The translations under genes were made by a program, and so were the position numbers. Positions 1 through 19,678 of a stretch of 26,854 bases of DNA are shown one piece after another. The stretch lies in assembly GCA_039208735.1 (NCBI GenBank), contig JBCCQY010000125.1, positions 1-26,854 on the forward strand, given 5' to 3'. Position 1 is the stretch's first letter; the number at the start of each line of letters is the position of its first letter. The notes under the pieces were generated by a model. The model was not told the DNA's origin, did not search any database, and saw only the letters and a program-made list of their open reading frames with translations. Origin of the DNA: Myxococcota bacterium (lineage in GTDB: Bacteria > Myxococcota_A > UBA796 > GCA-2862545).

Positions 1-462
1 ACTCGTTTCTTCGTTGGTCGGACCATCAGTCGGGCTGCGAAGCAGCTTCACCACTTATTGAGAGCTGGAGGAGCGTGTTTCAAAGTTAACGAGAGATGCC
101 GGAATCCGTGGCCAAGCCGCCGGTCCGACGTCTGCCACACCTTGAACGCAAAATCGGCGCAAGACCCAGCGCGGGCATTCACAGCTCGTGATTGGGTAAC
201 TACGCCGGGGAGACTCGACGTTGGATCATCACGCCGAGCCACGTCGCCGGGCCCGCACTCGGTCCTCTAGGCTCTGTGGACCCTGGGGGTACACGACGTT
301 TGCACTTTCTCAAACCTCACCAAGCCGACGTCTTCGTCCCTGGGTACGAAGCACATCGCCTTTTGACCATGACTTCCACCCTCCTCATGAACAACCAGAG
401 CGAGGATTCTTGATCCCAACCCTAGCCTTCTCCCTCACTCTTATGGCTTGTCAGGGGGGCGC

Positions 463-885
463 ATGAGTCGCGTTTCAACGTGTGTTGGTTGCGACAAGAA
501 GATCGTCCATGCGGGGACGCGTGGGCCATTGCCGAGCCGATGTACAGAATGCGAACGCAAGCGTCGTTCCAGCGTTGCGAAAGCGCGCCGAGCATCGGGA
601 AACGAGTCGACCGATGACGAAAAGCGGCGCGCCCGTGCTCGTAAGCGAGAGTATGACGTTCAACATCGGCCACTACAAATCGCGCTTCGCTGGGCCCAAA
701 ACCAGGGCCTCGAGCCTAGGGACGTCACGGTCGGTACGTTGAGGAAACGACACGGGGTGCTGTTTTTAGGATGGCGACGCCGCGTTGGGGAGGCCTATCG
801 AATGGCTCCCCGGGGTGAACGCGCAGAAGCCGCTTGGATGATGTGGTGTACCCTCATTTGGAAGAACGCATTGGGGCATGGTTAG
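463..885 (+). CDS. Unknown-family zinc-ribbon-like protein, paralog 1 (140 aa)
   Basis: CVGC-x7-GTRGPLPSRCTEC, Arg/Lys-rich linker, HRPLQIALRWA and VGEAYRMAPRGERAEAAW; these motifs recur in neighbouring ORFs. ATG at 463 follows CAGGGGGGCGC and is preferred over the track start at 448. Confidence 0.75.
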   Translation: MSRVSTCVGCDKKIVHAGTRGPLPSRCTECERKRRSSVAKARRASGNESTDDEKRRARARKREYDVQHRPLQIALRWAQNQGLEPRDVTVGTLRKRHGVLFLGWRRRVGEAYRMAPRGERAEAAWMMWCTLIWKNALGHG

Positions 886-1044
886 CCTTAAACCAAGTAC
901 CTGTCGTGAAGGGTGGCGAGCGCCTGACAAGCGAATTTGTACACCGTACTTCCGACGATCTGATGGAATTGGTTCGGCATCTAGATACGTCCACGACAAG
1001 AATCGAAGCCGGTTCAAATGCCCAAAATTTTGATCGAGAGACCT

Positions 1045-2343
1045 ATGGGAGAGCTTTCCGAGTGGATTCGACGTCTGCGCGATCAACCTTCAGACGAAGA
1101 TTGGAAGGTGTACGCCGACTGGCTGCAAGAACGAAGTGATCCCTGGTGGGATGTCGTGGCGGCGGGCATCGAAGGCCGAACAATCGCAGACTCGTTTCAA
1201 GAACAAGAAGCGCGACTCTTTCGTATTGGGAAGTTGGCGCCAGCGCTTTCCTCCAGTGTCAGCTGGGGGCGTACCGGCGTGTTTGCCCAGTTCCTTCCCA
1301 ATCGCGAACTCACGAGCGGACAAGATCGAGGAAGCTCCACCGAGTTTCGGATGCTGCATCTTGAATGGTTCTTGGACTCTTTCGAGTTCATGCGGTTCTT
1401 GCCTCAGGCCACGAGTGACCTGTTCTGTCCGAACTACACGCCGTCCACGCTTGCGTTCCTTCAGGGGCTCGAACTCCATGGACTGGCCCTTCACTCTCAC
1501 AGCCGGGATCCTTTGGATCTAACCTCCATCGAGAGTGTGGGACCCCTCGACACACTCGCGCTGCTGCTACCCGTCACAAGCCTCGAGCCCCTCACCACGT
1601 TGCCCCACCTTCGTCGGTTGGACTTGGGAACACTCGATTCTGAGATATCGCTGGCCCCCCTTTCGCAATCCAGTATCTACTCGCTGCGCCTGACCATTCC
1701 CCAAATGGATGACGAGTCGCACACCCATGACTTTGGCGCGTTGGTGGAGTGGCTTGAGCCTGTCGAGCGGCTCCCCTTGCGACGACTATCGCTGACGCAT
1801 CGGGGCACGGTCGACCTATCGTTGCTGCCCGCCTTTCACGCGCATTCAGACCTCCAAGAACTCACGCTTCACTACGATGGGCTTGAGATGCTTCCCATCT
1901 TCCCAAAGCTCAAGCGTTTGGTACTTCGGGGGGTCGAGTCCACCGACCTGCAGTTCTTGCGCCATTTGCCCCACCTCGAGAGCCTTGACATTCGTGAAAG
2001 CAAGGAGCTTGCTTCGGTCGATGGCCTTGAGTACACGCCGAGACTTCGAACGTTGCATATCGAAGGGGCACGTCGGCTCCACAAGCTTGGAGCATTGCGA
2101 CATGTGCCCCGACTCGAACGACTTGAACTTCGAGACTGCCCTGCCATCGAGACGCTCGAAGATCTCTCGGTACTTCATCGACTTCGGGCGCTCGTGGTTC
2201 ACCATTGCGGTCGAGGACTTGCGATTACTCCCGTCCTCCAGTTGAACAACCTCGGAGAGGTGTCACTGGTCGGATGTCGAGGTGTGCCAAAGATTCTTGA
2301 TACGATGGATTTCAGGCGGCATGTTCCGGCTTCTCATCGGTAG
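1045..2343 (+). CDS. Leucine-rich repeat protein with N-terminal TIGR02996-like repeat-companion domain
   Basis: N-terminal LRDQPSDEDWKVYADWLQERSDP resembles the TIGR02996 pattern (PDDD..RLVYADWLxExGDP). The C-terminal part has many LxxLxxLxL repeats (LPHLRRLDL, LPHLESLDI, TPRLRTLHI, VPRLERLEL). ATG 1045 follows GAGAG; 1018 is an alternative start. Confidence 0.88.
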   Translation: MGELSEWIRRLRDQPSDEDWKVYADWLQERSDPWWDVVAAGIEGRTIADSFQEQEARLFRIGKLAPALSSSVSWGRTGVFAQFLPNRELTSGQDRGSSTEFRMLHLEWFLDSFEFMRFLPQATSDLFCPNYTPSTLAFLQGLELHGLALHSHSRDPLDLTSIESVGPLDTLALLLPVTSLEPLTTLPHLRRLDLGTLDSEISLAPLSQSSIYSLRLTIPQMDDESHTHDFGALVEWLEPVERLPLRRLSLTHRGTVDLSLLPAFHAHSDLQELTLHYDGLEMLPIFPKLKRLVLRGVESTDLQFLRHLPHLESLDIRESKELASVDGLEYTPRLRTLHIEGARRLHKLGALRHVPRLERLELRDCPAIETLEDLSVLHRLRALVVHHCGRGLAITPVLQLNNLGEVSLVGCRGVPKILDTMDFRRHVPASHR

Positions 2344-2525
2344 GTGCGCCTTCCCGGCCATCTAGGCCATGCTCCATGAGGGGGCGACCACGATCCATCC
2401 TGCAGCATTCAGGGTTTGCCCAAGAACCTCGTGGATAGCGATATCTTTCCTAATGTGGCAAACTTACGCGCCACGGGTCCCCAAAGGTTCTTTATGCTCG
2501 ACGTGACTGTCTCGGGAGGCTCGAC

Positions 2526-2987
2526 ATGGTTCGCTGGGGCAAATGCTCCATTTGTGGGGCCAACATCGTCGCTCACGGAGCGCGCGGGCCCATTCCAAAT
2601 CGATGCGAGGATTGTCGGAAGGCGATTCGCAGGCGCCGTGCGGCTCGCGTTCGGCAGGGCGAACGGGTGGTGAACCAACGGCTTCACAGGCAGCTTGCGG
2701 ACGAGTCCCTAGCCGTCCGATTCCGTCCGCTGCTGCTTGCGTTTCAGTGGTCGGTAAGCCAGGGGCAAACCGAAGAGGCTCCTACGCTGGCCGAACTCCT
2801 CGACCAGCACGACCCTGATTTCTTGCAGAGCGCCCTGGTTGCGGTCTCCGTTGCTCACCATTCGGCACCGCGCGGCGAGAAGTGTAAAGCGGGATGGGCC
2901 GCCTGGTTGGCATTCCAGTCAGCCACCCTCCGAGCCGTAGGCAAGGGGCAGACCGTGGATGGTGAGGGAGAGCTCTTCGAGGGCTGA
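2526..2987 (+). CDS. Unknown-family zinc-ribbon-like protein, paralog 2 (153 aa)
   Basis: CSIC-x7-GARGPIPNRCEDC, FRPLLLAFQWS, VSVAHHSAPRGEKCKAGW; GGGAGG ribosome-binding site 6 nt before the ATG. Confidence 0.8.
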   Translation: MVRWGKCSICGANIVAHGARGPIPNRCEDCRKAIRRRRAARVRQGERVVNQRLHRQLADESLAVRFRPLLLAFQWSVSQGQTEEAPTLAELLDQHDPDFLQSALVAVSVAHHSAPRGEKCKAGWAAWLAFQSATLRAVGKGQTVDGEGELFEG

Positions 2988-3422
2988 GCCCAGATAGCAT
3001 CTGAGGGAGTTCGCAAGGCACGTCCATCCGGCCTTTCTTCGCTGGCCCCGCGGTGCGTTTCGGTAGGCCTTTGCCACGCTTAGGCGGATGTCGCTGTCCA
3101 ATGCGGGCCAGCGGCGCCGGAGGCAGTTTCGCAAGGCCCCTGCGTCCCCTTCGAGGTACCCGTGCGCACTGGCCCAGTGAAGCGCGTCACGAAAGGGACG
3201 CCCAATGGCATCGTCCCGCTTTTTCTGCTGGGCGCGTTTCTGCTGCTGTGTGCGTTGACGTCTTGCCTCTTGGCCTTCGGGGGTGCGGGCGGTGCGTGCC
3301 AGCTCGCGACGATGCTTCAATCGGCACGGGCTACAGCGGAGAGGCAACGGACCACGTGATCCAGCTTCAAAGCTCTCGTTACAATCCGTACATTGTGCAG
3401 TACGAGCGTTCCCGGATGCCAT
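2919..3422 (-). CDS. Unknown-family zinc-ribbon-like protein, paralog 3 (167 aa)
   Basis: CTDC-x6-GSRGPLPLRCSPC, GRPFRDALHWA, VAKAYRNAPRGQRRKAGW; leader CAGGGGGGCCC-ATG. Confidence 0.8.
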   Translation of the reverse strand: MASGNARTAQCTDCNESFEAGSRGPLPLRCSPCRLKHRRELARTARTPEGQEARRQRTQQQKRAQQKKRDDAIGRPFRDALHWASAHGYLEGDAGALRNCLRRRWPALDSDIRLSVAKAYRNAPRGQRRKAGWTCLANSLRCYLGSALEELSLTIHGLPLAYGSEGG

Positions 3423-3530
3423 GGGCCCCCCTGGTCGCTTCCGGGGCGACCTCTAGACGCCAGAACGAGCCCCTGAAGGGCGTGCTTTCTCAAGTAGCTC
3501 AGTTTTGGGCCTACCCAGGTGTTGCCAAAC

Positions 3531-3935
3531 TCAGGTTGTCGGGAGTTCGTCGCCCCATTCGGCAACCAGAACGGTCCATCCCGCTTGACAACGCTGACCT
3601 TGTGGGCTGTCTTGGTAGGCCTTGACCACCACTCGTCGAACCCGCATGAAGCCTGGGGTCCTCCGCAAGTCCGCGACTCGAAGTTTGTGTTTTAGGAACT
3701 TGCGGGTGAGCGCCCAGTCGAGCACGTACTGCAGCGGTCGGGTCTCCTGGTCGTACTGGCGTTGTGACGCCGGGTCTCGCCCCTGCGGACGTGCGGGCAC
3801 TTGACGCGACTTGTGGCGGTCGCGGCACTTCTCACACCGCTTTGGCAAGGGGCCCCGACGGCCTTTGGCCTTGAAGAGATTCCTACATTCTTGGCAGAAG
3901 GCATGGCGCCCTGATTCGCCGGATTGGGCGCTCAC
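3531..3935 (-). CDS. Unknown-family zinc-ribbon-like protein, paralog 4 (134 aa)
   Basis: CQEC-x7-GRRGPLPKRCEKC, TRPLQYVLDWA, VVKAYQDSPQGQRCQAGW. The in-frame GTG at 3935 follows GGAGA; the track's extension to 4220 has no counterpart in the other paralogs. Confidence 0.75.
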   Translation of the reverse strand: MSAQSGESGRHAFCQECRNLFKAKGRRGPLPKRCEKCRDRHKSRQVPARPQGRDPASQRQYDQETRPLQYVLDWALTRKFLKHKLRVADLRRTPGFMRVRRVVVKAYQDSPQGQRCQAGWTVLVAEWGDELPTT

Positions 3936-4125
3936 GGTTTCTCCAACTGCGGTTCTTGACCTTCGGACATGGCAACACCAATGGTGAGACTCTGGCCGGC
4001 CTGTGCGGCGCTTTCGCAGGGCGGAGAACGACCTCGTTCCTGCTGCATCGTGGAAGCACCATGCTACGAACTTCCCGTGGAGGGCTCCATACGAGAAAAC
4101 CGGTTCGTCGGAACTTCTGACGGGG

Positions 4126-4610
4126 TCAGGTTGGTAGAGGCAGCAAAGTTGTGGCTCCGCTACCGTTCGATCCATGATCGAGTTTTGGTCGTTCACACCC
4201 GAGTGAAGATCGCAGCTCATCCTTCACGGTGCGCTGGATCAAATTCACAAGAGAAGTGTCGCTGTGAATTCGTCGCCGTAGACGTCTGTATGTTTGCCAT
4301 GTCGCGGCCGATGCCGTCGAGGGAGAGGCATGCGGGAATCCGCGTACTGAAGCACGGTAAGGACCGGCTTATTTAGGTCATCCCAGCGAGATTTTCGCTT
4401 CGCCTCCTGTTCCCCTCGGGTGAGCGGCTTCTTCGACCGTCGGCGGGCGGCCTGTTTACGACGTGCCACTTTGCGGCAAAGTTCGCAGAGGCTGGGGATA
4501 GGACCGCGTTTCCCCGGTGCTTGAAAATGGTAGCCGCAGACCTCGCAATGGCCGACTCGGGCGTCGGGTGGCAACCCGATGCACTGCGGACAGTCCTGTG
4601 CTCGGGTCAC
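4126..4610 (-). pseudogene. Unknown-family zinc-ribbon-like protein, paralog 5, apparently frameshifted
   Basis: ORF 4245-4610 (GTG after GGGGGG) has an extra CPQC, then CEVC-x7-GKRGPIPSLCELC and NKPVLTVLQYA, and then loses similarity. The -1 frame from about 4330 reads ...YRRLRRRIHSDTSLVNLIQRTVKDELRSSLGCERPK..., loosely like the paralog C-termini, and stops at 4126-4128. Confidence 0.6.
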
Positions 4611-5244
4611 AACCACCCCCCGATAGGGAGGAACCGCTGCCCGGTGGAGCCGACCGGCACGATGCCGTACGGGAAGGGGGCTGCGTCGACCACGGATCGG
4701 CGTCCACCACCGGCCCTTGGTGAGCCTAGGGCGATTTGATACCCATATGCTTTTTGAAAAGCCGACATTTGGAAGCTCCGCGCCCAGGCTGGCACGAGGT
4801 TGAGCATCCTGTCGTCTGCTATGGAAGGTCTCCGAAGCGGGTTGAGAGCGGCAAACTACGTGCCGAGCCTGGGCGAGTGGGGGGTCAAAGGAGGCGAACT
4901 ACATGGGTCAGCGTGGTCGACACCTCACGCAAGGGCGCGTGATTGGCGGTGCCCATGGTGGCCACGAGGCCGCTGCAGCCAGGCAACAGGGGCGGAGTGA
5001 TCGAAGCGGTTCGTTGCAACACCGCTTCTGCGAGGTCTCAAGAGGATCCAAGGATCGGGGCAAAGAGTGGATCTCACACAATCAAAATCCGTAGAAAACC
5101 TATAGGAAATTCGGCTTATTCGAGGGTGCGGCATGACCGTGACTCCTTGGCGTAGGCAGGTGCAACGAGAATGGACGGGCTGGCCCGAGGGGTGAAGCAT
5201 TCTTAGGCTACCCATCGCGTTGTGAGTGGGTGAGCCGGCTACTC

Positions 5245-5270
5245 GGGATCGTCGGAAGTTCCGACATCCC
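5245..5270. repeat. Inverted repeat GGGAT(C)GTCGGAA-G-TTCCGACATCCC
   Basis: 12-bp arms with one bulged C around a 1-nt spacer, read directly. A related 17-mer, CGTCGGAA-C-TTCTGACG, lies at 4106-4122. Function unknown. Confidence 0.6.
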
Positions 5271-5612
5271 AGTTGGCATTGAGTGAGCGAGGACGGCACA
5301 CTTGTCTCGGCTTGCCGCAATCTGAGTTTCCCGTCACGGTCCGTCACGGTCGCCGTCATCCAGCGACGAATGGCGCGGGCCAGATCGATAAGTTTCAAAG
5401 ATACTTATTGCGGGCTGATGAGTTCCGACGGAAGTCGAGATCCGTCGAGTTTCCGTTCAGATGCTTCCAAGTCCGAAATTCGAATTGTTTTCCGAATTCG
5501 GTTGGGATTTGAGGGATGTGGCTCCATCGACGAGATGCTCAAAGCTTTCGCGGCTCGGCGTTTGGTTTGAGTTCCTCAGCGCGGTGGGAACCTGGATCGG
5601 CTTGCTCGACGG

Positions 5613-6490: not shown

Positions 6491-9400
6491 CTATGCGGGC
6501 GGCTCGGACCTTGACGTCTCGAGTGTGTGGACGAGTCCTCGCAGCTCCCCGCCCGATCCCATCGGCAACGCTTCCATCAGTGTCCGCGCCTGCATGAGCG
6601 CATCCTCCGCGGAGGTCGCATCTTGCTTTGCCAATGATGCGAGCCCCCATCGGCACAAGGCACACCCGAGCGTGGTCGTCTGTCCAAGCGCATGCAACGC
6701 ATCAACCGCTTGCCGCGCGAGCCGCACCGCGCCTTCGGGGTCGGTTGGGATCAAGGCCTGAGCTAGACACGATTGGAGTTCGGCGGACTGCCTCGCGGCT
6801 CGACCGGACTCCACGAGGGCGAGGGCTTGGCGGAGGTGGGCCTCGGCCGTCGCATGGTCTCCGCGGGCCAGCGCGACGCGTCCCAGTGCGCCGCGTGCGA
6901 TGCCCTCATGGACGGCACGGCCCATCTGCTGGAATCCCTCAAGGGCTTGTTGAAATGCGGCTTCGGCTTCGTTCCATCGACCAAGCTGAAGTGCGGTTTC
7001 GCCAAGGTTGTAGCGCGCCCCTTCGGCCTGGGCGCGTTCCCGAAGGGCGACAAAGCCCGATCGCGCAAGCTCGAACCAACGCCGCGCGGCGTCCATATCA
7101 CCGAGGTAGCCCGCAATGGTGCCCAGTCGGTTTGCCTGGGTGGCACTTGATGAGCGGTTGCCCTTGCGACGACTTCGCTTGAGGATTCCCTCATGGAGCG
7201 TTCGGGCTTCCGTAAAGCGCCCTTGTTCGAGCCGGATGAGGCCGAGCATGTCGTCGGGGTCTGTGGAGTCGAACGGCACTTCGGCGAGATGATACGCCGT
7301 GCGATGCCGTTCGAGGAACGCTTCGGCTTCCGCGAGACGGCCTTCCACACGGCAGATTCCGGCCAGATTGTAGTGGATCCGAGACTCGAGCCAGGGGGCT
7401 TGCGCGAGTCGAGCCAGTGACGCCGCCTCTTGGAGTTCGGCCCACGCACCATCGAGGTCCCCACGCCGAAAGGCTACCCATCCGGTGGCGGAACGCAGAT
7501 GGGCTTCTGCGAGCGCATTGGGGACGCGTTCGAGCAGGGCTTCGGCCCGGGCTAATCGCGGTGCGAGCTGTCCCCGAGGGGCGGCGTCCACGGTGTGGCG
7601 AATCCACTCCCCAAGGGCAATCCCCTCGATGTCGGGGTCATGCGCATCGCGGCTCACGCTGATCGCTGCCTGGGCGGCTTCGTCGAGCGGGGAGCCGCTG
7701 GTGGACAGGAGGCTCCGCATTCGTGCGAGCGCAAACCGAGACCGCAGCGTGTCATCGAGGTCATCGAGGCCCTTGGTGCGCCGAAGCAACGAGCGACCTT
7801 GCGATGCCAGCCCGCGCATGGACAGTACGGGAGCGAGCCACAGCAGAATTCGAACGCGAAGGTCGACCGAGAGATCAGGCGCTTCGAGCACCGCGAGGGC
7901 ACTAGGGACCTCGTGGGCGAGTGCAGCGACGCGGCGGGGGGAGGGGCCCCAGAACGGGGGCGTCGATGCGGACAGGGTAGCCAGGTAGCTTCGATGGGCT
8001 TCACCGACCGAACGCCGCAAGGCTTCGACGTCGTCGTGCAAGACCTCGGCCACGAACTCAGAGATCCCGAGAAAAGGGGTGAGACGGCCGTCGGCCGTCC
8101 GACGCAGTACCGCGAAGTCGACGAGACGTTGGAGCGAGTCGAGCGCCGGACCCTCGACCAAGCCAGCGGTGACCATCTCGGCCGCATCAGCTGAAAAGGT
8201 CCCCGGAAGCAGCGAAAGGGCAGCAAGACGTTGCTGGTCAGCGATGGACAGCGCAGTCCAGGTGCGCCCGATCGCTTGACGCAGGCCATCGGACTCGTCG
8301 CGCAGGACGTCGAGGGGGCGGTCGAGGCGGGCCACGAGGCCGTTGATGCCGAGCAGGCGCAGGCGGCCCGCCGCGAGGTCGAGAGCCAGGGGGTTCCGAT
8401 CCACCTCTTCGACGATCTGCGGGATGCGTTCGTCTTCTGCGTCGAGGGGTACGCCCGCCGCAGCCGCTCGGGTGACGAACAGTCCGATGGCCGCGGACGG
8501 CTCGAGCCGGTCGATCGTGACGATGCGTTCCAGAGCAAGGCCCGTCGGACGCCGCGAGGTCACGAGCACTCGAGCCCCTGGTGCAGCGCCGAAGAGTTCG
8601 TAAAGCACCTGCGCGACCGCGTCGATGGCGCCCTCGGCGTGGTCGAGGACGAGCAACAGATCGTCGCCATCTCGCAGGGCGGCATGCAGTCGCTCAGAAG
8701 GGCCCTCGGGGGAGGCGTCCACCCCGATCGCACGGGCGAGGGAGGCTGCGACCGTCGTTGGGGATCGGCCGAAGACTTCGAGATTGGCGTAGCAAGCCCG
8801 ACCGGGCCATGCTTGGGCGACGGCTCGGGCGACGGTGCTCTTTCCCGCTCCTGCCGGACCGTGGAGCGTCACGAGGGCTTCCGAGCGCTCCAGGTGGTCG
8901 AGAACGCTGCGAATCACTCGGTCGCGACCGACCACTGGACCGTCGGGGGGTGGGCAGGGGGTGCCGGAGGACGCCGTGCGCGCCTCGACGACGAGCGCCA
9001 AGCCGCGGCCCCGAATCGTGCGGAGATAGCGGGGTGAACCTCCTTCCTCGATTTTGGCCCGTAGGCGGTACACGAGCTTGTCGACGACCCTTCGTTGCTG
9101 CGCATCGTGGATGCCCCACACCTCCCGCAACAGATCGATCGTCGGCAGGGGACGACCCTCACGTGCGTACAGGAGTTCGAGTAGGCGACCTTCATGGTCG
9201 GTAAGGGTCAACGATGCCGCGCCTTCGCGCTCCACGATGAGCCGGTCGAGGTCCACGGTGTTCGAGCCCAGCCGGATTCGGCGAGACGAGGGGGCGGTCT
9301 CAAGCGGTACGAACCGGTAGCCAACCCCCCGAACCCCGACCAAATGAAATGGCCGGGAAGGGACACGCTCAATCTTCGCGCGAAGCCGTTTCATGGCATC

Positions 9401-9604
9401 GTCAACGGCGCGCGAGCGCACCGTGCTTGCGTAGCCGAGCACCTCGGTGAGCAAGACCTCGCGAGACACGTCTTCGTGGGGGTGCGCGGCGAGGTAGCCG
9501 AGGAGCGCACACTCCTGGGGGGTCAACTCGCGAGCTTCTCCATCGGAACGTTCCAGGCGGCCGAATTCGAGGTCCAGCCGTCCGATGGCGAGATCGAGAA
9601 TCAC
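6491..9604 (-). CDS. STAND-class ATPase/TPR transcriptional regulator with two tandem OmpR/PhoB-type winged-helix domains
   Basis: Two Trans_reg_C-like units (LTPQECALLGYL...VDDAMKRLRAKIE...VRGVGYRF; LTDHEGRLLELL...VDKLVYRLRAKIE...IRGRGL), Walker A GPAGAGKS, Walker B LVLDHAE, VTSR, NPLALDLAA, then TPR-like helices. GTG 9604 chosen as start; the track start is 9658. Confidence 0.88.
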   Translation of the reverse strand: MILDLAIGRLDLEFGRLERSDGEARELTPQECALLGYLAAHPHEDVSREVLLTEVLGYASTVRSRAVDDAMKRLRAKIERVPSRPFHLVGVRGVGYRFVPLETAPSSRRIRLGSNTVDLDRLIVEREGAASLTLTDHEGRLLELLYAREGRPLPTIDLLREVWGIHDAQQRRVVDKLVYRLRAKIEEGGSPRYLRTIRGRGLALVVEARTASSGTPCPPPDGPVVGRDRVIRSVLDHLERSEALVTLHGPAGAGKSTVARAVAQAWPGRACYANLEVFGRSPTTVAASLARAIGVDASPEGPSERLHAALRDGDDLLLVLDHAEGAIDAVAQVLYELFGAAPGARVLVTSRRPTGLALERIVTIDRLEPSAAIGLFVTRAAAAGVPLDAEDERIPQIVEEVDRNPLALDLAAGRLRLLGINGLVARLDRPLDVLRDESDGLRQAIGRTWTALSIADQQRLAALSLLPGTFSADAAEMVTAGLVEGPALDSLQRLVDFAVLRRTADGRLTPFLGISEFVAEVLHDDVEALRRSVGEAHRSYLATLSASTPPFWGPSPRRVAALAHEVPSALAVLEAPDLSVDLRVRILLWLAPVLSMRGLASQGRSLLRRTKGLDDLDDTLRSRFALARMRSLLSTSGSPLDEAAQAAISVSRDAHDPDIEGIALGEWIRHTVDAAPRGQLAPRLARAEALLERVPNALAEAHLRSATGWVAFRRGDLDGAWAELQEAASLARLAQAPWLESRIHYNLAGICRVEGRLAEAEAFLERHRTAYHLAEVPFDSTDPDDMLGLIRLEQGRFTEARTLHEGILKRSRRKGNRSSSATQANRLGTIAGYLGDMDAARRWFELARSGFVALRERAQAEGARYNLGETALQLGRWNEAEAAFQQALEGFQQMGRAVHEGIARGALGRVALARGDHATAEAHLRQALALVESGRAARQSAELQSCLAQALIPTDPEGAVRLARQAVDALHALGQTTTLGCALCRWGLASLAKQDATSAEDALMQARTLMEALPMGSGGELRGLVHTLETSRSEPPA

Positions 9605-9713
9605 GATACCGTTTAGCCCACCCGGACCAAGGAAGACGACTGCCACACGCCGGGACACTGCGGAGAGGTGGGTCTGCGTACGTCAGGAGCACCCCCAAAT
9701 CGGAGGTCCCCCC

Positions 9714-13125: not shown

Positions 13126-15534
13126 ATGGTCGTTTTGCTCATCGCCGCAGAGTTCATATCCACGGCCTACGGGCAATGTGCGGCGACAGTAAACCGGGAC
13201 TTGAACTGCAATGGGGTTGCCGAGGCGGATGAGTTGCCCGTCGACCTGGCGGATCCGGAATGCGCGTCGAACCTGGATTCACAGAACGTTCCCTTCCAGA
13301 ATCGAGACCACTACTATGATTACGCGTCGTACGGCTGTGCGATTCTGCTGGAGGAAGCTCAATACGATCCCGACGGCGACGGTTTCGGTTCAGGGTTGAT
13401 CGTCCTTCCGCCCAATAGCCCTTCGCCCACCCAGATCTTCCTCTTGGAGTGTGACCTCTGCCCTCAGACGGCCAATCCGCTGCAGCAAGATCTCGATTGT
13501 GACGCCGTCGGCGATGAGTGCGACAACTGCCCCGCGATCCCCAATGTCGGCCAAGTCGATCTCGATGCCGATGGTCTGGGTGATGAATGCGATTCCTGCC
13601 CTTTCCTGCAGCAAGCATCCGATGCGGATGACGACGGCGATGCCGTGGGCGATGAGTGCGACAACTGCCTTGGGGTTGCCAACCCAGACCAACAGGACCT
13701 CGATGCCGATGGTCGAGGAGACGCCTGCGACATGTGCCCCGAGGTCTTCGAGGAAAGCCCAAGCGATCGTGATGGCGATGGGATCGGTGATGCCTGCGAC
13801 CTTTGCCCCGGCACCGACAACCCCGACCAGCTCGACACCGATGGGGATTCGTGGGGAGATGCTTGCGACAACTGCCCAATGGTGGCCGATCCGACGCTTC
13901 TCGACTCGGACGACGACGGCATCGGCAATGTGTGTGACTCCTGCCCCTTCCAAGGCGACCCCAAGGACCTCGACACCGATGCAGACTTGGTGGGCGATGC
14001 CTGTGATGTCTGTCCGGAAGTCGCCGACGACCAGGCCGACCTCGATCTCGACGGGGTCGGTGATGCTTGTGACAACTGTCCCCTCGCTCAGAACCCCGAT
14101 CAGGCGGACGTTGATTCAGACGGTCTGGGTGACCTTTGCGACAATTGCGCGTGGATTCGCAATGCGGGCCAGCAAGACACGGATGGGGATGGCATTGGGG
14201 ATGCCTGCGTACCCGTGGCGTTGCCGGCCGCACCGTCTCCAGCGGGGTGTGGTTGCACGGCAAGTCCAAATCCCCTGGGCTTCGGCGGAGTGGGGTTGCT
14301 CCTCTTGAGTGGTCTGATCGGACTGCGACGACGTCGCATGGTCGCGATGGGACTCGTCTTCGGTGGGATGGCCCTGATGCCGTCGATGGCCCAGGCCCAA
14401 TGCGCGGCCACGGCGACCCGAGACGTGAACTGCAACGGCATCGATGCGGCCAATGAAGCGAGCGTCGACTTGCAAGATCCGGTGTGTGCCGCGAACAGCA
14501 CCCTGACCTCGGTGGATGACTACTTCGACTACGGGTCGTGGGGGTGTGCGTTTCCTGTCGATGATCCCGACCAGGATGGCTTTGGTGAGGGCATCTTGCT
14601 GCTCCCTGGGGGTGGGGTGGTCCTGTTCGAGTGCGACACCTGTCCCGGCCTCGCAAACCCAGATCACCTCGACGAGGACTGCGATGGGGTGGGCGATAGC
14701 TGCGACAATTGCGTGTTGACCCCCAACGCAAACCAGCTGGACCAAGATGGTGACCTAATTGGAGATGAGTGCGACGAGTGCGTGTTCGACGCGGGACCCC
14801 AGGGAGATTCCGACAACGACGGCGTTGGGGATGGGTGTGACAACTGCCCGTTGGTGCCCAATCCGCTGGCCTCCGACACGGACGGCGACCGCATTGGGGA
14901 TGCTTGCGACAATTGCATCGTCACCTTCAACCCTGATCAAGGCGATCTCGATGAAGATGGCATGGGCGACGTATGCGACCTGTGCCCCGCCCTCGAAGAC
15001 ACCATTCAAGTCGACACGGACGTCGACGGCGTTGGCGATGCATGCGATGTATGCCCGGACGCGCTCGACGATCAAGCCAATTCGGATGCCGACGTGCTTG
15101 GCGATGCTTGCGATAACTGTGCGTTTGTATCGAATGCCGACCAGGCCGACCGTGATGGCGATGGAGTCGGGGACGCCTGCGACGTGTGCCCCGACCAAAC
15201 CGACCTGCAGGTCGATGCTGAGGGCGATGGCATCGGGGACCCCTGTGACAACTGCCCAACCGTGGTGAATCCTGACCAAGCGGACGTCGATGGCGATGGT
15301 ATCGGTGACCTCTGTGACAACTGTCTGGTCGTTCCAAACCCCAGTCAGGCCGACCTGGAGGGCGATGGCATCGGCGATGCGTGTGTTTTGGTTCCGCAAG
15401 CGCCTGTGGTGACGGTCAGCGGTTGCTCGAGCACAGGAATGCTGCCGATGGGAGGGCTTACTTGCCTGGGCCTCGTGGCATTCCTGCGTCGACGGAAGGT
15501 GGCCCTCGGTTTGACGGGTCACCCCACCAAGTAG
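13126..15534 (+). CDS. Thrombospondin type 3 repeat surface protein made of two complete tandem modules, each ending in a MYXO-CTERM-like signal
   Basis: GGAGG RBS; signal peptide ending AYG|QCAAT; 11 DxDxDxxGDxC repeats; GCGC-TM-RRRR; second signal ending AQA|QCAAT; 11 more repeats; GCSS-TM-RRRK. Confidence 0.93.
14245..14397 (+). other. Internal MYXO-CTERM-like anchor fused to a second signal peptide
   Basis: Reads [51 protein letters not shown] in frame, with no stop codon and no obvious RBS before ATG 14338. Confidence 0.8.
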
Positions 15535-16022
15535 TCAGCGAGGTAGACCGCCGCGAAGCGCCAGTTGCGTTCGACGGTGCGCGTCGACACGTCCAGCACC
15601 TCCGCGATGTCCTCGTGGGTCATGCCGCCAAAGATGCGCATGAGCGCAACCTCGGAGGCCCGTACATTGATGGATTGGAGCGCGTCGAGCGCCCGGTCGA
15701 CGTTCATCGCATCGAGGACGACGTCGGGGTTTCCGGGCAGGCCACTTAATGTGACCCGCTGCAGGTCTCCGCCCCGCTTTAGGGCGCCGATGTGCCTTGC
15801 TCGGTCGACCAAGAGTTGGCGCATCGCACGAGCTGCCGTGGCCATGAAGTGAGCTTGAGACTTGTATTTCGATGAGGAGCGCGCGAGCTTCAGCCAGGCC
15901 TCGTGGATGAGCACCGTCGGTTGCAGCGTGGCGTGGCCGAACCCGTGGCGCGCGTAGATCCGCGTAGCCATCTCGTGGAGCTGGGCGTAAATCGCTTCGT
16001 TGAGGGGGGCGGGTTCGGGCAT
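15519..16022 (-). CDS. ECF sigma-70 factor, TIGR02999-type (Ser/Thr kinase-associated)
   Basis: [36 protein letters not shown]...KRGG, region 4 [22 protein letters not shown]. The start may be at 16022, 16031 or 16034. Confidence 0.93.
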
Positions 16023-16045
16023 GGGGCTCACCAAGCTCCGCCCCT

Positions 16046-19000
16046 CTATCGCGGCTTGTCGCCCGAAGCGTCGCGCTGAAGCCGCTGCGCAACCCTTTGG
16101 AGCTTCACGATGACTTCCGCATGGGACTCAAGGGCCATGCCTGCGATGGTTCGGCGCGCGTCGTCCATGGCCATGTGAGCTCGCTCTGAGGCACCTCTTT
16201 GGGCTTCGAAGAGGGCCCGGTCGCAGAGCAGCAACGCCAACTCGTAGCGGTCTTGGGCCTCGCGAACGATTCGTTCGGCCTCGTCGAGTTCGGCACGCCC
16301 TGCCTCCGCGTTGTCGAGGCACCGGGCGCGCAACGCCATCAGTCGTCCGAGGGGGATGGGGTCGTTCAACGCGCGGGCGGTATCCAACCCGCTGTCGTAG
16401 ATTGCACGGGCTTCCTCGACGTTGCCACGGGCATCGCATAGCTCGCCCAGGTAGGCGTGGATCCAAGGTTTCTTGGCATGACGGGTATCGACGAGGGAGG
16501 TCTCGAAAGCGTCCCTTAGGAACGGTTCGGCTTCGTCGAGTCGCCCGTCCATCACCAGCAGGTGCCCGAGTTCGGTGCGAGCATTCTGCAAGGAAAGCAT
16601 GTGTTGCCGAGCCTCGGCGAGTTCCACGGCCCGGCGAAGCTGGGGCTCGGCCTCCGCCCGTTGGCCCCTGCGGTGCAGCACGTAGCCGAGAAAGGCCACC
16701 AGATGCACCTCGTTATCGAGACCCCCGACTTCAGCGGCGAGCCGGAGCGCGCCACGGATGCGTTCGATGGCTACGGGGTAGTCCCCTTGGGATTCGGCGA
16801 CGGTGGCCAATCCGATGGTCCAGTTCGCGACGGACATGGCATCGTCATTGTCGTGCGCGTGCTGAACTGCGGATTCGTAGCACTGCCGAGCCTCGGAGAG
16901 CCTTCGTTGGCGGAAGCGAAGGTTGCCCAGCATGCCGTACAGGTAGGACAGAAACCGTGGGCGTCCCCCCGTCTTCGACAGCGCAACGGCCTCACTGAAA
17001 CGCTGCTCCGCTTGTTCATGCTGACCTCTTGCCAACGCCAGGCGGGCCAGGCGGAGGACGGGAACGAGCACCACGTGGGCCCGTCCATCGCGGCGCGCGG
17101 CTTCCTCGGACTCGGTAAACAGCCGCTCCACTTCGTCCCAACGTCCTTGATCGGCCGCGTGTTCTCCGAGGTAGCCGAGGTTGGAGGACAACTCATCGTG
17201 GAGTCCCGCGGTTCGAGCCAGTTCGATCGCCTCGAGGTGCGCTTGCGCGGCGACACCCGCCGACTCGATGCGGTTGAGGAGTCGGCCCTTCTCGCGAAGG
17301 AGGGGCGCTCGAAGATGCGGTTGTTGTATGACGGGTAGGATCTCGTCGAGAAGCTCGATTCCGGAACGCGCCGGACCACGCATGTAGAAGATGTCGCTTG
17401 CGCGGACGCCGGTTCCCGAGGCGATGGAGGTCTCACCTCGCCGTGCGGCCCGACGCGCAGCCGCGATGAGGTTTTCATGTTCGAGATTAAACGCGCGTTC
17501 GGAGCGCTCCGACGTCGCGAAGGTGTGGAACCAGGTGCCGTGGCGCCGTTCGGCCTTCGTGGGATCCGCGAGTTGCGCGGCAGCAAAGGCCTGAACGCTC
17601 ACCAGCATTCGCAACCGTCCTTCCTCATGGCGCAGCAGTCCTTTGCTGATGAGTTCGGCGAGGACGTCCTCGACCCAGCCCGTGGTTGCGCCGAGGTCCA
17701 CGACACCTTGGGCCGCCTCAACGGTGAACCCATCTTCGAACACCGAAAGCTGAGCGAGCACCGAGCGCTGGAGCGGCGTGAGGAGTTCCCAGCTCCACTG
17801 CAACGTGGCCCACAAGGTGCGGTGACGTTCGGGAAGGTCGTTCGCCGCGGTCCGCAGTACGTCAAAGCGTCGGCTCATCCGGTCGAGCAACGCGCGAGGT
17901 GACAACAGGCGGCTTCGCGCGGCGGCAAGCTCGATGGCGAGCGGCAGCCGATCCAGGAGATGGACGAGCTTGACGAGGTGGGCGCGGTGTTCGTCTGGCG
18001 AGAACCGATGGTTGACCTCGCGAGCTCGTTCCGCGAAGAGCTGGAGTGCCTCGCTCTCCGGGAGCAGATCCAGCGGGCAATGCTGCTCGCCGTAAAGCTG
18101 CAAAGGCGTTCGACTCGTCACGAGCACGCGCAGCGTAGGGACGAGGTCAAGCCAGTGCCCAACCGTCTCGGCTGCATGGTCGACGATCTGCTCGAAGTTG
18201 TCCAAGATGAGGAGCATCGGACCCAGCGATCGAAGGGCTTCGACCACCTGCGCATCCGGATCCCGACCCCGGGGAACGCCCAACGCATCGGCCGTCGCCG
18301 AGCGGATGCCTTCTGCCGAGTGGGTGTCCGCGAGTGGCACCAGACGGACACCGCCTGCCCACTCGCCATGAAGCTGTCGACCGAGTTCGATGGCGAGCCG
18401 GGTCTTGCCGAGGCCTCCAATGCCCAGGAGCGTGACGAGTCGGTGGCTGCGCAGCCGTGTGGCAACGTCGGTCAGCGCCCCACGGCGGCCGATGAAACGA
18501 TTTCTTGGGGTGGGCAACGTCAGCGGGTTGGGGTTCGGCGACGATGGGATGGGCTCCTCGCCGATGAGCACGCCGTTGGGGGCTTCCCAACGGGTTCGCA
18601 GGGCTACACAGCTCGACGGTCGATCGTCGGGTCGTAGCCGAAGACCCGCATCGATCGCCGCTCGCCAACGCAGGGGCAGGGACTCAGGGAGTTGAGGCCG
18701 TCGCCCTTCGAGGATGGCGGTCAGCGTTTCCCCGTTGTCGGCGCCCTCGAACGCTCCGCGACCCGTCACCATGCGGTACAGCAGGCAGCTGACGGCCCAG
18801 ATATCGACGCGATGATCCACAGCCCGGACCTGGCGAATCTGCTCAGGGGCCATGTAGGCAAGGGTGCCGACCCAGGCTCCGGTTTGGGTGAGCCGCGCGT
18901 TGGGGCTCCGACCATCGATGGCCTGCGCAATGCCAAAGTCCGCGATTTTAGGCACGTACCGCGTCCCCTCACGGGCTAACAGCACGTTGCTGGGCTTGAT

Positions 19001-19606
19001 GTCCCGGTGGATCAACCCTGCATCGTGAATCGCCTGCACCCCCGCGAAGATTCCCAACGCGATGGCGTCGATTTGACTCTCCGAGAGTGCATGCTCCCGC
19101 AAGAATGCAGAGAGGTCGGGGCCGTCGACGAGTTCGGTGAGCAGCGCAAGACGGCCGTCGACTTCGAGGAGTTCTTGCACCGTCACCACGTTCCGGTGTC
19201 GTACATCGTCTTGGAAGGCTCGCTCACGGCGCATCCGTTCGCGAGAGACGGGCCCGTTGAGTTCGAGGACCTTCAGCGCGTGGGGCTGCCAAAGTTCGGT
19301 ATCGAAGACTTTCCAGACCGAGGAGGTGCCGCCGCGACCCAGCAACGCCTGCACTTCATAGCGGCCTTGCACTCGGGTTCCGAGTTCGAGCTCCACCGCC
19401 TGAAGTCCCGTGGAGGCTGCGACGGCACGGTCCAAGGCGTTCTCGATCGTGCTGATCGAGGTCTCATCCAACAATCGAGACACGAACTTGCGTAGCTCGG
19501 CGTCGCCTTTACACGCTTCGTCGAGGGCGCGGGCCCGGGACGCCCCTTCGAGGTCGGCGATGGCCATGAAGACCGAGTAGGCTCGCTGATAGTCTTGTCC
19601 TTCCAT
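16046..19606 (-). CDS. Hanks-type Ser/Thr kinase fused to STAND ATPase and TPR domains
   Basis: GGGAGG then ATG 19606; N-terminal RARALDEACKGDAELRKFVSRLL; kinase motifs GRGGTSSV, ALK, HRDIKPSN, DFG, APE; Walker A GIGGLGKT, LILDNFE, VTSR, LPLAIELAA; TPR-like C-terminus. Confidence 0.94.
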   Translation of the reverse strand: MEGQDYQRAYSVFMAIADLEGASRARALDEACKGDAELRKFVSRLLDETSISTIENALDRAVAASTGLQAVELELGTRVQGRYEVQALLGRGGTSSVWKVFDTELWQPHALKVLELNGPVSRERMRRERAFQDDVRHRNVVTVQELLEVDGRLALLTELVDGPDLSAFLREHALSESQIDAIALGIFAGVQAIHDAGLIHRDIKPSNVLLAREGTRYVPKIADFGIAQAIDGRSPNARLTQTGAWVGTLAYMAPEQIRQVRAVDHRVDIWAVSCLLYRMVTGRGAFEGADNGETLTAILEGRRPQLPESLPLRWRAAIDAGLRLRPDDRPSSCVALRTRWEAPNGVLIGEEPIPSSPNPNPLTLPTPRNRFIGRRGALTDVATRLRSHRLVTLLGIGGLGKTRLAIELGRQLHGEWAGGVRLVPLADTHSAEGIRSATADALGVPRGRDPDAQVVEALRSLGPMLLILDNFEQIVDHAAETVGHWLDLVPTLRVLVTSRTPLQLYGEQHCPLDLLPESEALQLFAERAREVNHRFSPDEHRAHLVKLVHLLDRLPLAIELAAARSRLLSPRALLDRMSRRFDVLRTAANDLPERHRTLWATLQWSWELLTPLQRSVLAQLSVFEDGFTVEAAQGVVDLGATTGWVEDVLAELISKGLLRHEEGRLRMLVSVQAFAAAQLADPTKAERRHGTWFHTFATSERSERAFNLEHENLIAAARRAARRGETSIASGTGVRASDIFYMRGPARSGIELLDEILPVIQQPHLRAPLLREKGRLLNRIESAGVAAQAHLEAIELARTAGLHDELSSNLGYLGEHAADQGRWDEVERLFTESEEAARRDGRAHVVLVPVLRLARLALARGQHEQAEQRFSEAVALSKTGGRPRFLSYLYGMLGNLRFRQRRLSEARQCYESAVQHAHDNDDAMSVANWTIGLATVAESQGDYPVAIERIRGALRLAAEVGGLDNEVHLVAFLGYVLHRRGQRAEAEPQLRRAVELAEARQHMLSLQNARTELGHLLVMDGRLDEAEPFLRDAFETSLVDTRHAKKPWIHAYLGELCDARGNVEEARAIYDSGLDTARALNDPIPLGRLMALRARCLDNAEAGRAELDEAERIVREAQDRYELALLLCDRALFEAQRGASERAHMAMDDARRTIAGMALESHAEVIVKLQRVAQRLQRDASGDKPR

Positions 19607-19678
19607 GGTGCGCCCCTCCCTAAGTTCGGAGCACAATCCTTGAAACGGAGGAGCGCCAAAGCTGGGGCACCTTTTTAG

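Follow-up and report, generated by a model that had tools for sequence, protein, structure and literature searches.

A zinc-finger protein family with a predicted all-helical domain in a Myxococcota genome, and a palindrome that clusters at its loci

Zinc domains of the type discussed here occur on or beside phage HNH genes, and stand-alone zinc proteins have been suggested to act as regulators or specificity subunits, an idea put forward without test (PMC3592412). Here we describe an unnamed protein family that uses such a domain, encoded on a contig of a Myxococcota bacterium (JBCCQY010000125.1, here C125). The window, meaning the whole stretch of DNA analysed (26,854 nucleotides), is the entire contig, part of a 9.4-Mb draft genome. 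This genome encodes seven copies of the family, five of them in the window, and a 15-bp palindrome, GTCGGAASTTCCGAC, clusters at the family loci; this clustering is newly described here. We tentatively read the family, at a probability of roughly 45%, as small non-catalytic DNA-binding regulators carried on small islets with their operator.

Like HNH/EndoVII proteins, the family carries the module C-x2-C...RGP-x-P-x-RC-x2-C followed by a basic helix, and profile matches to these proteins cover the finger (E 1e-15 to 1e-4). Unlike them, it has one finger, no HNH/EndoVII (His-Me) domain by Pfam, and a predicted all-helical C-terminal domain (C-domain) that was not found in HNH/EndoVII proteins; nor was it found in the phage and plasmid collections searched. 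The finger also gives sub-threshold matches to NinG, TraR and a DksA-like PHROG, but the match to the TraR family hidden Markov model (HMM) reaches 13.5 bits against a cut-off of 59.7 and is limited to the finger, and the TraR/DksA and NinG families lack the C-domain. Conflict systems with effector-associated domains (EADs) provide a third comparison: one family homolog carries an EAD-like domain, and lineage-specific paralogs within a host that resembles myxobacteria are a shared trait (PMC7159879). However, the family's own domain showed no likeness to EADs in the comparisons made (no Pfam EAD match; hhalign probability 0.2% versus a single EAD-like set assembled for this purpose), none of the copies has a core NTPase or vWA system in view beside it, and the fused domain has no Pfam match. 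By these sequence tests, the family falls outside the HNH/EndoVII, TraR/DksA and PADLOC families. A known finger is reused with a helical domain lacking a fold match. An earlier note on this DNA had called the family unrecognised, and this holds for the curated collections: Pfam, NCBIfam and PADLOC gave no match above cut-off, PHROG gave weak, finger-only matches, and nothing significant was found among PDB sequences.

The copies in this genome are as follows.

463..885, + strand: paralog A, 140 aa; identified by family motif and HMM; predicted C4 zinc finger, basic helix and four-helix C-domain
2526..2987, + strand: paralog B, 153 aa; 3' end overlaps paralog C by 69 bp
2919..3422, – strand: paralog C, 167 aa; by family motif and HMM
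3531..3935, – strand: paralog D, 134 aa; begins with GTG in its protein-collection record (P0004)
4245..4610, – strand: paralog E, truncated; zinc finger and basic helix intact, family sequence stops at 4346
C37:4651-5091, + strand: paralog F; HMM E 3e-28
C36:22009-22569, + strand: paralog G; HMM E 2e-26

The five open reading frames (ORFs) of the window begin where the earlier note had placed them. All five contain C-x2-C-x8/9-RGP-[LI]-P-x-[RL]-C-x2-C, and four of the five contain the second proposed block, A[YH]xx[AS]P[RQ]G..A[GA]W. The cluster itself is real, with five copies in 463-4610 on both strands, but it is not the whole family: the strict motif occurs seven times in the six-frame ORFs of the 9.4 Mb, in A–E and in single copies on contigs C37 and C36. 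An HMM built from the five window paralogs recovered both of these copies, on which it had not been trained, and the next match in the genome stood at E 0.04. The expansion is not purely local, and in other genomes the homologs occur singly, on inserts or next to a recombinase.

Are these ORFs genes? Pairwise amino acid identity among the seven is 24–43%, and nucleotide identity by codon position is 0.49, 0.48 and 0.31, which leaves third positions almost saturated; different codons are used in 557 of 831 identical-residue pairs. This combination indicates that the paralogs are genes rather than repeats. The earlier note had proposed that conservation at the nucleotide level would point to repeat remnants; conservation is found at the codon and protein level, and blastn detected no DNA-level repeat among the copies. 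The true frame is the best-scoring of six in all seven copies (marginally so for E). Paralog A has a GGGGGG resembling a ribosome-binding site 8 nt ahead of its ATG, and the start context CAGGGGGG-x-CATG is common to paralogs C and A. A–D are partly covered, at roughly 94–99% identity, by contigs of three other sequencing runs (from two studies besides the possible source study, plus one run from that study). The sole listed indel in these contigs is one 3-nt deletion, with no frameshift (106 further differences are unlisted); paralog A is covered without gaps, and both of its listed differences are synonymous. That the ORFs are decayed remnants or repeats is thus extremely improbable, even though six of the seven score negative under the host codon model, a simple gene caller recovered just part of B, and E is broken.

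In a tree, a weak branch (74/90) separates the seven own copies, whose tips are long and star-like, from the rest, and this topology neither establishes nor rejects a single origin. In this genome, an HMM of the C-domain matches only the six stand-alone copies, and the same search revealed no fusion of a second C-domain copy to a core system component near family genes.

The earlier picture of five kept paralogs stands as to age, coding capacity and constraint on the protein, but not for paralog E, which is truncated in this genome. Contigs of runs X3 and X4, from two studies, both depart from the window at 4346, and beyond this point E continues in frame with W-A-F-D-N-G-K-L-K-R, which fits a family block (compare WGFDHGHL in F). 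Depth of these contigs is low (2.6 and 4.4), yet they agree letter for letter. A contig of run X2 rejoins the window at 4325, preceded by 135 unlike letters. Because the strain contigs carry the in-frame continuation, we conclude that the second half of E has been deleted or replaced in this genome. No frame downstream of E matches the C-terminal profile, and a frameshifted continuation inside the window was rejected (best score –0.1 bits, under shuffles).

Structure prediction gives a C4 zinc finger that leads into a basic helix of about 50 residues, followed by a compact helical domain. AlphaFold places a two-strand zinc knuckle ahead of a continuous helix (27–76) and three further helices (pLDDT 90); the C-domain modelled alone is all-helical (pLDDT 94, pTM 0.81). 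The four cysteines are invariant across the seven paralogs, while the third or fourth ligand varies in outside homologs. The label zinc ribbon given earlier needs amendment: a four-cysteine finger is predicted, but in the model the knuckle gives two cysteines and the helix start gives the last two. This arrangement is consistent with the treble-clef definition as worded in PMC4999995 (knuckle and helix start supply the ligands), and we regard the finger as a predicted treble-clef type with putative zinc binding, although the best structural Z is about 4. Linkers are variable in length and strongly basic (net charge +5 to +11). Net charge of whole proteins is +6 to +30 and the finger is one common to HNH/EndoVII nucleases, and the earlier suggestion of a nucleic-acid binder is, on this footing, likely.

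In the C-domain alignment only a G is invariant; W and A are near-invariant, D, L-R, Y and R are mostly kept, and no fixed catalytic set is present. Foldseek searches gave no clear match, whether the whole model was compared with PDB and viral models or the C-domain alone with PDB, and a VIA fold search gave none either (best Z 4.7 for the whole protein, 4.5 for the C-domain). Such an absence of matches to a predicted model does not prove a new fold. The N-terminal half does align, at Z about 4, with finger-plus-long-helix proteins that include ribosomal chains, and copy F weakly matches a DksA-like PHROG (E 0.0015) and TraR (E 0.08). One could therefore imagine a ligand of RNA polymerase or the ribosome, a TraR/DksA- or eL34-like finger-plus-helix protein that would modulate expression globally. 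We consider this very improbable: these matches are finger-only and far below cut-off, an acidic DxxDxA-type tip is not seen in the alignment, and the palindrome would be left unexplained.

A full HMMER scan of 1.84 billion protein representatives gave 93 matches, comprising six own copies, four full-length outside proteins (P0009, P0041, P0050 and P0085; E 4e-9 to 7e-4) and a remainder that is mainly finger and helix. In a subset of 45, picked mostly for length, HNH or EndoVII domains are present in 18 and a CcdA family domain in one. A fifth outside member, P0096, lies in genome G033 (first match E 1e-4), and the searches made found no outside relatives beyond these five. The family was detected in 3 of 182 genomes from the class, in 3 of 154 from the order and in 2 of 401 sampled from the phylum, and was not found in four congeners or in any of 301 genomes of another phylum; G033 and a further genome, G106, match later profiles partly by construction. 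Word-indexed homolog searches returned self or already known members only, and the ESM Atlas gave unnamed clusters only (0.90–0.91 for the whole protein, ≤0.82 for the C-domain). Finger-pattern scans return mostly multi-finger HNH proteins. Scanning DNA for the finger pattern turned up 16 viral, 21 metagenome and 5 genome loci, all of them lacking the C-domain, and the pattern with 8-residue spacing gave 0 viral loci. On one viral contig (L043:2209-3129), the same finger is fused to a PAPS-reductase-like domain, so named by sequence reading.

Other elements lie near the family genes. In the window, these are:

5251..5265, no strand: perfect palindrome GTCGGAAGTTCCGAC, candidate operator
4107..4121, no strand: one-mismatch palindrome GTCGGAACTTCTGAC, between E and D
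948..960, no strand: half-site ACTTCCGACGATC, between A and the leucine-rich-repeat (LRR) gene; weak by itself
4851..4864, – strand: sigma-54-type –24/–12 element, GGCACG-N4-TTGC
4607..4807, – strand: 66-aa ORF beginning 57 bp after the sigma-54 element, its TGA overlapping E's GTG; no clear homolog, may be a non-gene
1018..2343, + strand: protein with TIGR02996-like N-terminus and LRR, between A and B; a neighbour, link unproven

Four exact copies of GTCGGAASTTCCGAC are present in the genome, versus 0.07 expected; elsewhere in the order, two of 153 other genomes have one each, within or overlapping long ORFs. When up to one mismatch is allowed, the genome contains nine sites. Five of these are non-coding (C125:4107, C125:5251, C37:91, C37:364 and C37:5150), and all five lie within 5 kb of a family gene. 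We built a scoring matrix from these five sites alone and applied it to the spacer upstream of the homolog in G106. The spacer scores 14.6 bits, while among control windows 0 of 176 and 2 of 400 score that high, and its site shares 16 of 17 bases with window 5247-5263. The palindrome is enriched at two loci here and a related site occurs in G106; none was found at C36 or G033. As separate observations, the fourth exact copy (G000:C104:6197, L011) falls inside a tape-measure-like prophage gene and may be chance or a target site, and each palindrome arm contains TCCGAC, which fits the MmeI site TCCRAC given in the abstract of PMC10209223, likely a coincidence. A 17-nt inverted repeat (82%; 446-462 and 916-932) brackets gene A and is probably due to chance among 64 pairs.

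Several facts weigh against pairing of the family with the palindrome. The other four of the nine near-exact sites sit inside genes; the G106 site has three mismatches; the control windows are mostly coding DNA; and in the matrix scan A, B, C, the C36 copy and the G033 homolog all lacked a good upstream site. On C37, moreover, an AAA+ regulator with a helix-turn-helix (HTH) is directly preceded by two full sites and a half-site. This regulator, or the TIGR02147 proteins of C37, could own the palindrome, which is the main doubt here. The G106 islet bears the motif but has no regulators of the C37 type, which argues, on one case, for the pairing of family and motif.

In G106, infA and an acyltransferase-like gene flank the homolog. 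These two genes are about 40–100 bp apart in 5 of 5 sister genomes, and hence G106 carries an insert, of 1.1 kb. The insert contains a 56-aa membrane ORF, a 460-bp spacer and the family gene, with no transposase, integrase or other mobility enzyme and no other DNA-binding gene; for the small divergent ORF, 153 other genomes yielded no homolog. The G033 homolog sits in a low-GC patch, and directly upstream of it is an 871-aa large serine recombinase (L023:1871-4483, – strand) fused to a ParB-like HTH domain. In this genome, window 1-5600 and C37 1-5200 fall at the 0.9th and 0.5th genome percentiles of GC, and the C36 copy lies outside the lowest-GC 1%. Both low-GC loci are contig starts, and no join between the left ends of C37 and C125 could be shown. 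The loci do not have the form of an insertion sequence or integron cassette: no terminal repeats, regular recombination sites or recombinase were found, with the caveat that the assembly is broken at both loci and the gap could hide a recombinase. Cassettes, insertion sequences and RNA elements were rejected as candidates, there being no regular boundaries and no Rfam match.

An insert of this kind would also be expected of a minimal selfish element, in which finger and helix find a target in the manner of a free-standing homing endonuclease, the helical domain nicks or recombines DNA, and the palindrome is the target or end. Consistent with this, the finger is common to HNH/EndoVII proteins, the G106 insert is missing from 5/5 sisters, copies occur in both orientations with E damaged, a query with the G033 serine recombinase found no homolog in this assembly, and one Asp and one Tyr are well conserved. 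Yet no acidic or His residues form an invariant catalytic set (the Tyr is substituted in B and P0085, the Asp in B), the copies share neither DNA-level similarity nor terminal repeats, the palindromes bracket genes in no regular way, and fold searches with the C-domain gave no nuclease match. We regard such an element as distinctly unlikely. A bolder version, in which gene and palindrome form a minimal self-spreading islet whose finger and new-fold helical domain would recognise GTCGGAASTTCCGAC and promote its own insertion or copying without a known transposase or integrase, seems to us a long shot. If true, it would explain both the G106 insert and the seven mixed-orientation copies here.

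The neighbours suggest another possibility. A diverged TIGR02996-like LRR gene adjoins a family gene at both low-GC loci (2/3 loci), and C37 also carries the AAA+-HTH regulator, which lacks the usual GAFTGA loop, and two TIGR02147 genes. Since ERATGV replaces the GAFTGA-like loop seen in other activators, the C37 protein is doubtful as a sigma-54 activator. AAA+ sigma-54-type regulators with altered GAFTGA loops adjoin TIGR02147 genes at C37:556-1566 and C2:168594-170847, and at L084 an activator likewise adjoins a TIGR02147-like gene. The sigma-54 pattern of the window occurs 34 times in the genome, and 10 of the 11 other non-coding instances lie 10–71 bp before a same-strand gene.

In light of these neighbours, the family might instead be sensors or adaptors of a conflict system that recognise a partner or the nucleic acid of an invader and pass the signal on to LRR or EAD-coupled effectors; in that case the palindromes would belong to the C37 AAA+-HTH or TIGR02147 regulators, and the sigma-54 promoter would drive E-D-C. 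P0096, which has a degenerate finger, bears on this and counts against a pure regulator, because it is fused to an unnamed EAD-like domain. In related genomes this domain precedes kinase-, CHAT-, TIR-, trypsin- and metallophosphatase-like domains (named by sequence reading), a fusion pattern like that described for EADs in PMC7159879. The domain (L002:847-1143, about 90 residues) has no Pfam match at L002; in family f4 (L086-L094), where it has 9–10 copies per genome, it is N-terminal to kinase-, CHAT-, TIR-, trypsin- and phosphatase-like domains by the same kind of reading. The deep, star-like divergence of the copies and the sigma-54 element at 4864 also fit a conflict role. On the other hand, PADLOC 2.0 gives 0 matches for eight family proteins, the C-domain does not resemble the one EAD-like set compared with it, no effector gene adjoins the lone copies of G106 and C36, and the C37 AAA+ protein is a doubtful activator. 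Co-occurrence with LRR genes, which the earlier note had proposed to check, is seen at two of three loci here but not in the DNA analysed around the G106 and G033 homologs, and it means less in a genome with 55 TIGR02996-type matches (and 18 of TIGR02147 type). Overall, a conflict role appears possible but unlikely. A literature search outside subscription journals and supplements found no paper naming TIGR02147, TIGR02996 or the palindrome; supplements of the EAD papers, which lie outside that search, could list the domain.

Under the regulator reading that we favour, family genes would be brought in on tiny mobile islets, and the expansion to seven copies would have occurred long ago, mostly in two low-GC contig ends. 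The finger would position the basic helix of about 50 residues, and the two together may grip DNA, as is thought for the same finger in phage HNH/EndoVII nucleases. The C-domain would provide a second contact, with DNA or protein. Variation in the basic helix (22–35 residues) could give paralogs different targets, and paralogs would bind nearby GTCGGAASTTCCGAC sites, thereby controlling genes of their own islet.

The window also carries other genes. An 802-aa ORF (13126-15534, + strand) has two thrombospondin-3 repeat blocks, each ending MYXO-CTERM-like, as if two genes had fused, and matches MYXO-CTERM MtsC just above cut-off; gene content of this kind suggests a myxobacterium-like host. At 6491-9658 (– strand) lies a regulator that combines a pair of OmpR-type winged helices with a P-loop NTPase and tetratricopeptide repeats (TPRs); a similar protein is found at C36:23615-26290, 1 kb from the C36 family copy. 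Finally, 15519-19636 (– strand) contains a Ser/Thr kinase-NTPase-TPR gene followed by a TIGR02999-type ECF sigma factor.

The family is very rare (3/182 class genomes), and its general weight is therefore limited unless it is self-mobile. What it offers is an unnamed family, now defined, whose helical domain is predicted with confidence and matched none of the solved folds searched, and an instance of a phage-nuclease zinc finger put to use in the absence of its nuclease. It also offers a case of a gene that enters core regions of the genome on a 1-kb insert in which no mobility enzyme is visible. The candidate operator is a concrete one, so that a single binding experiment could test the family's function.

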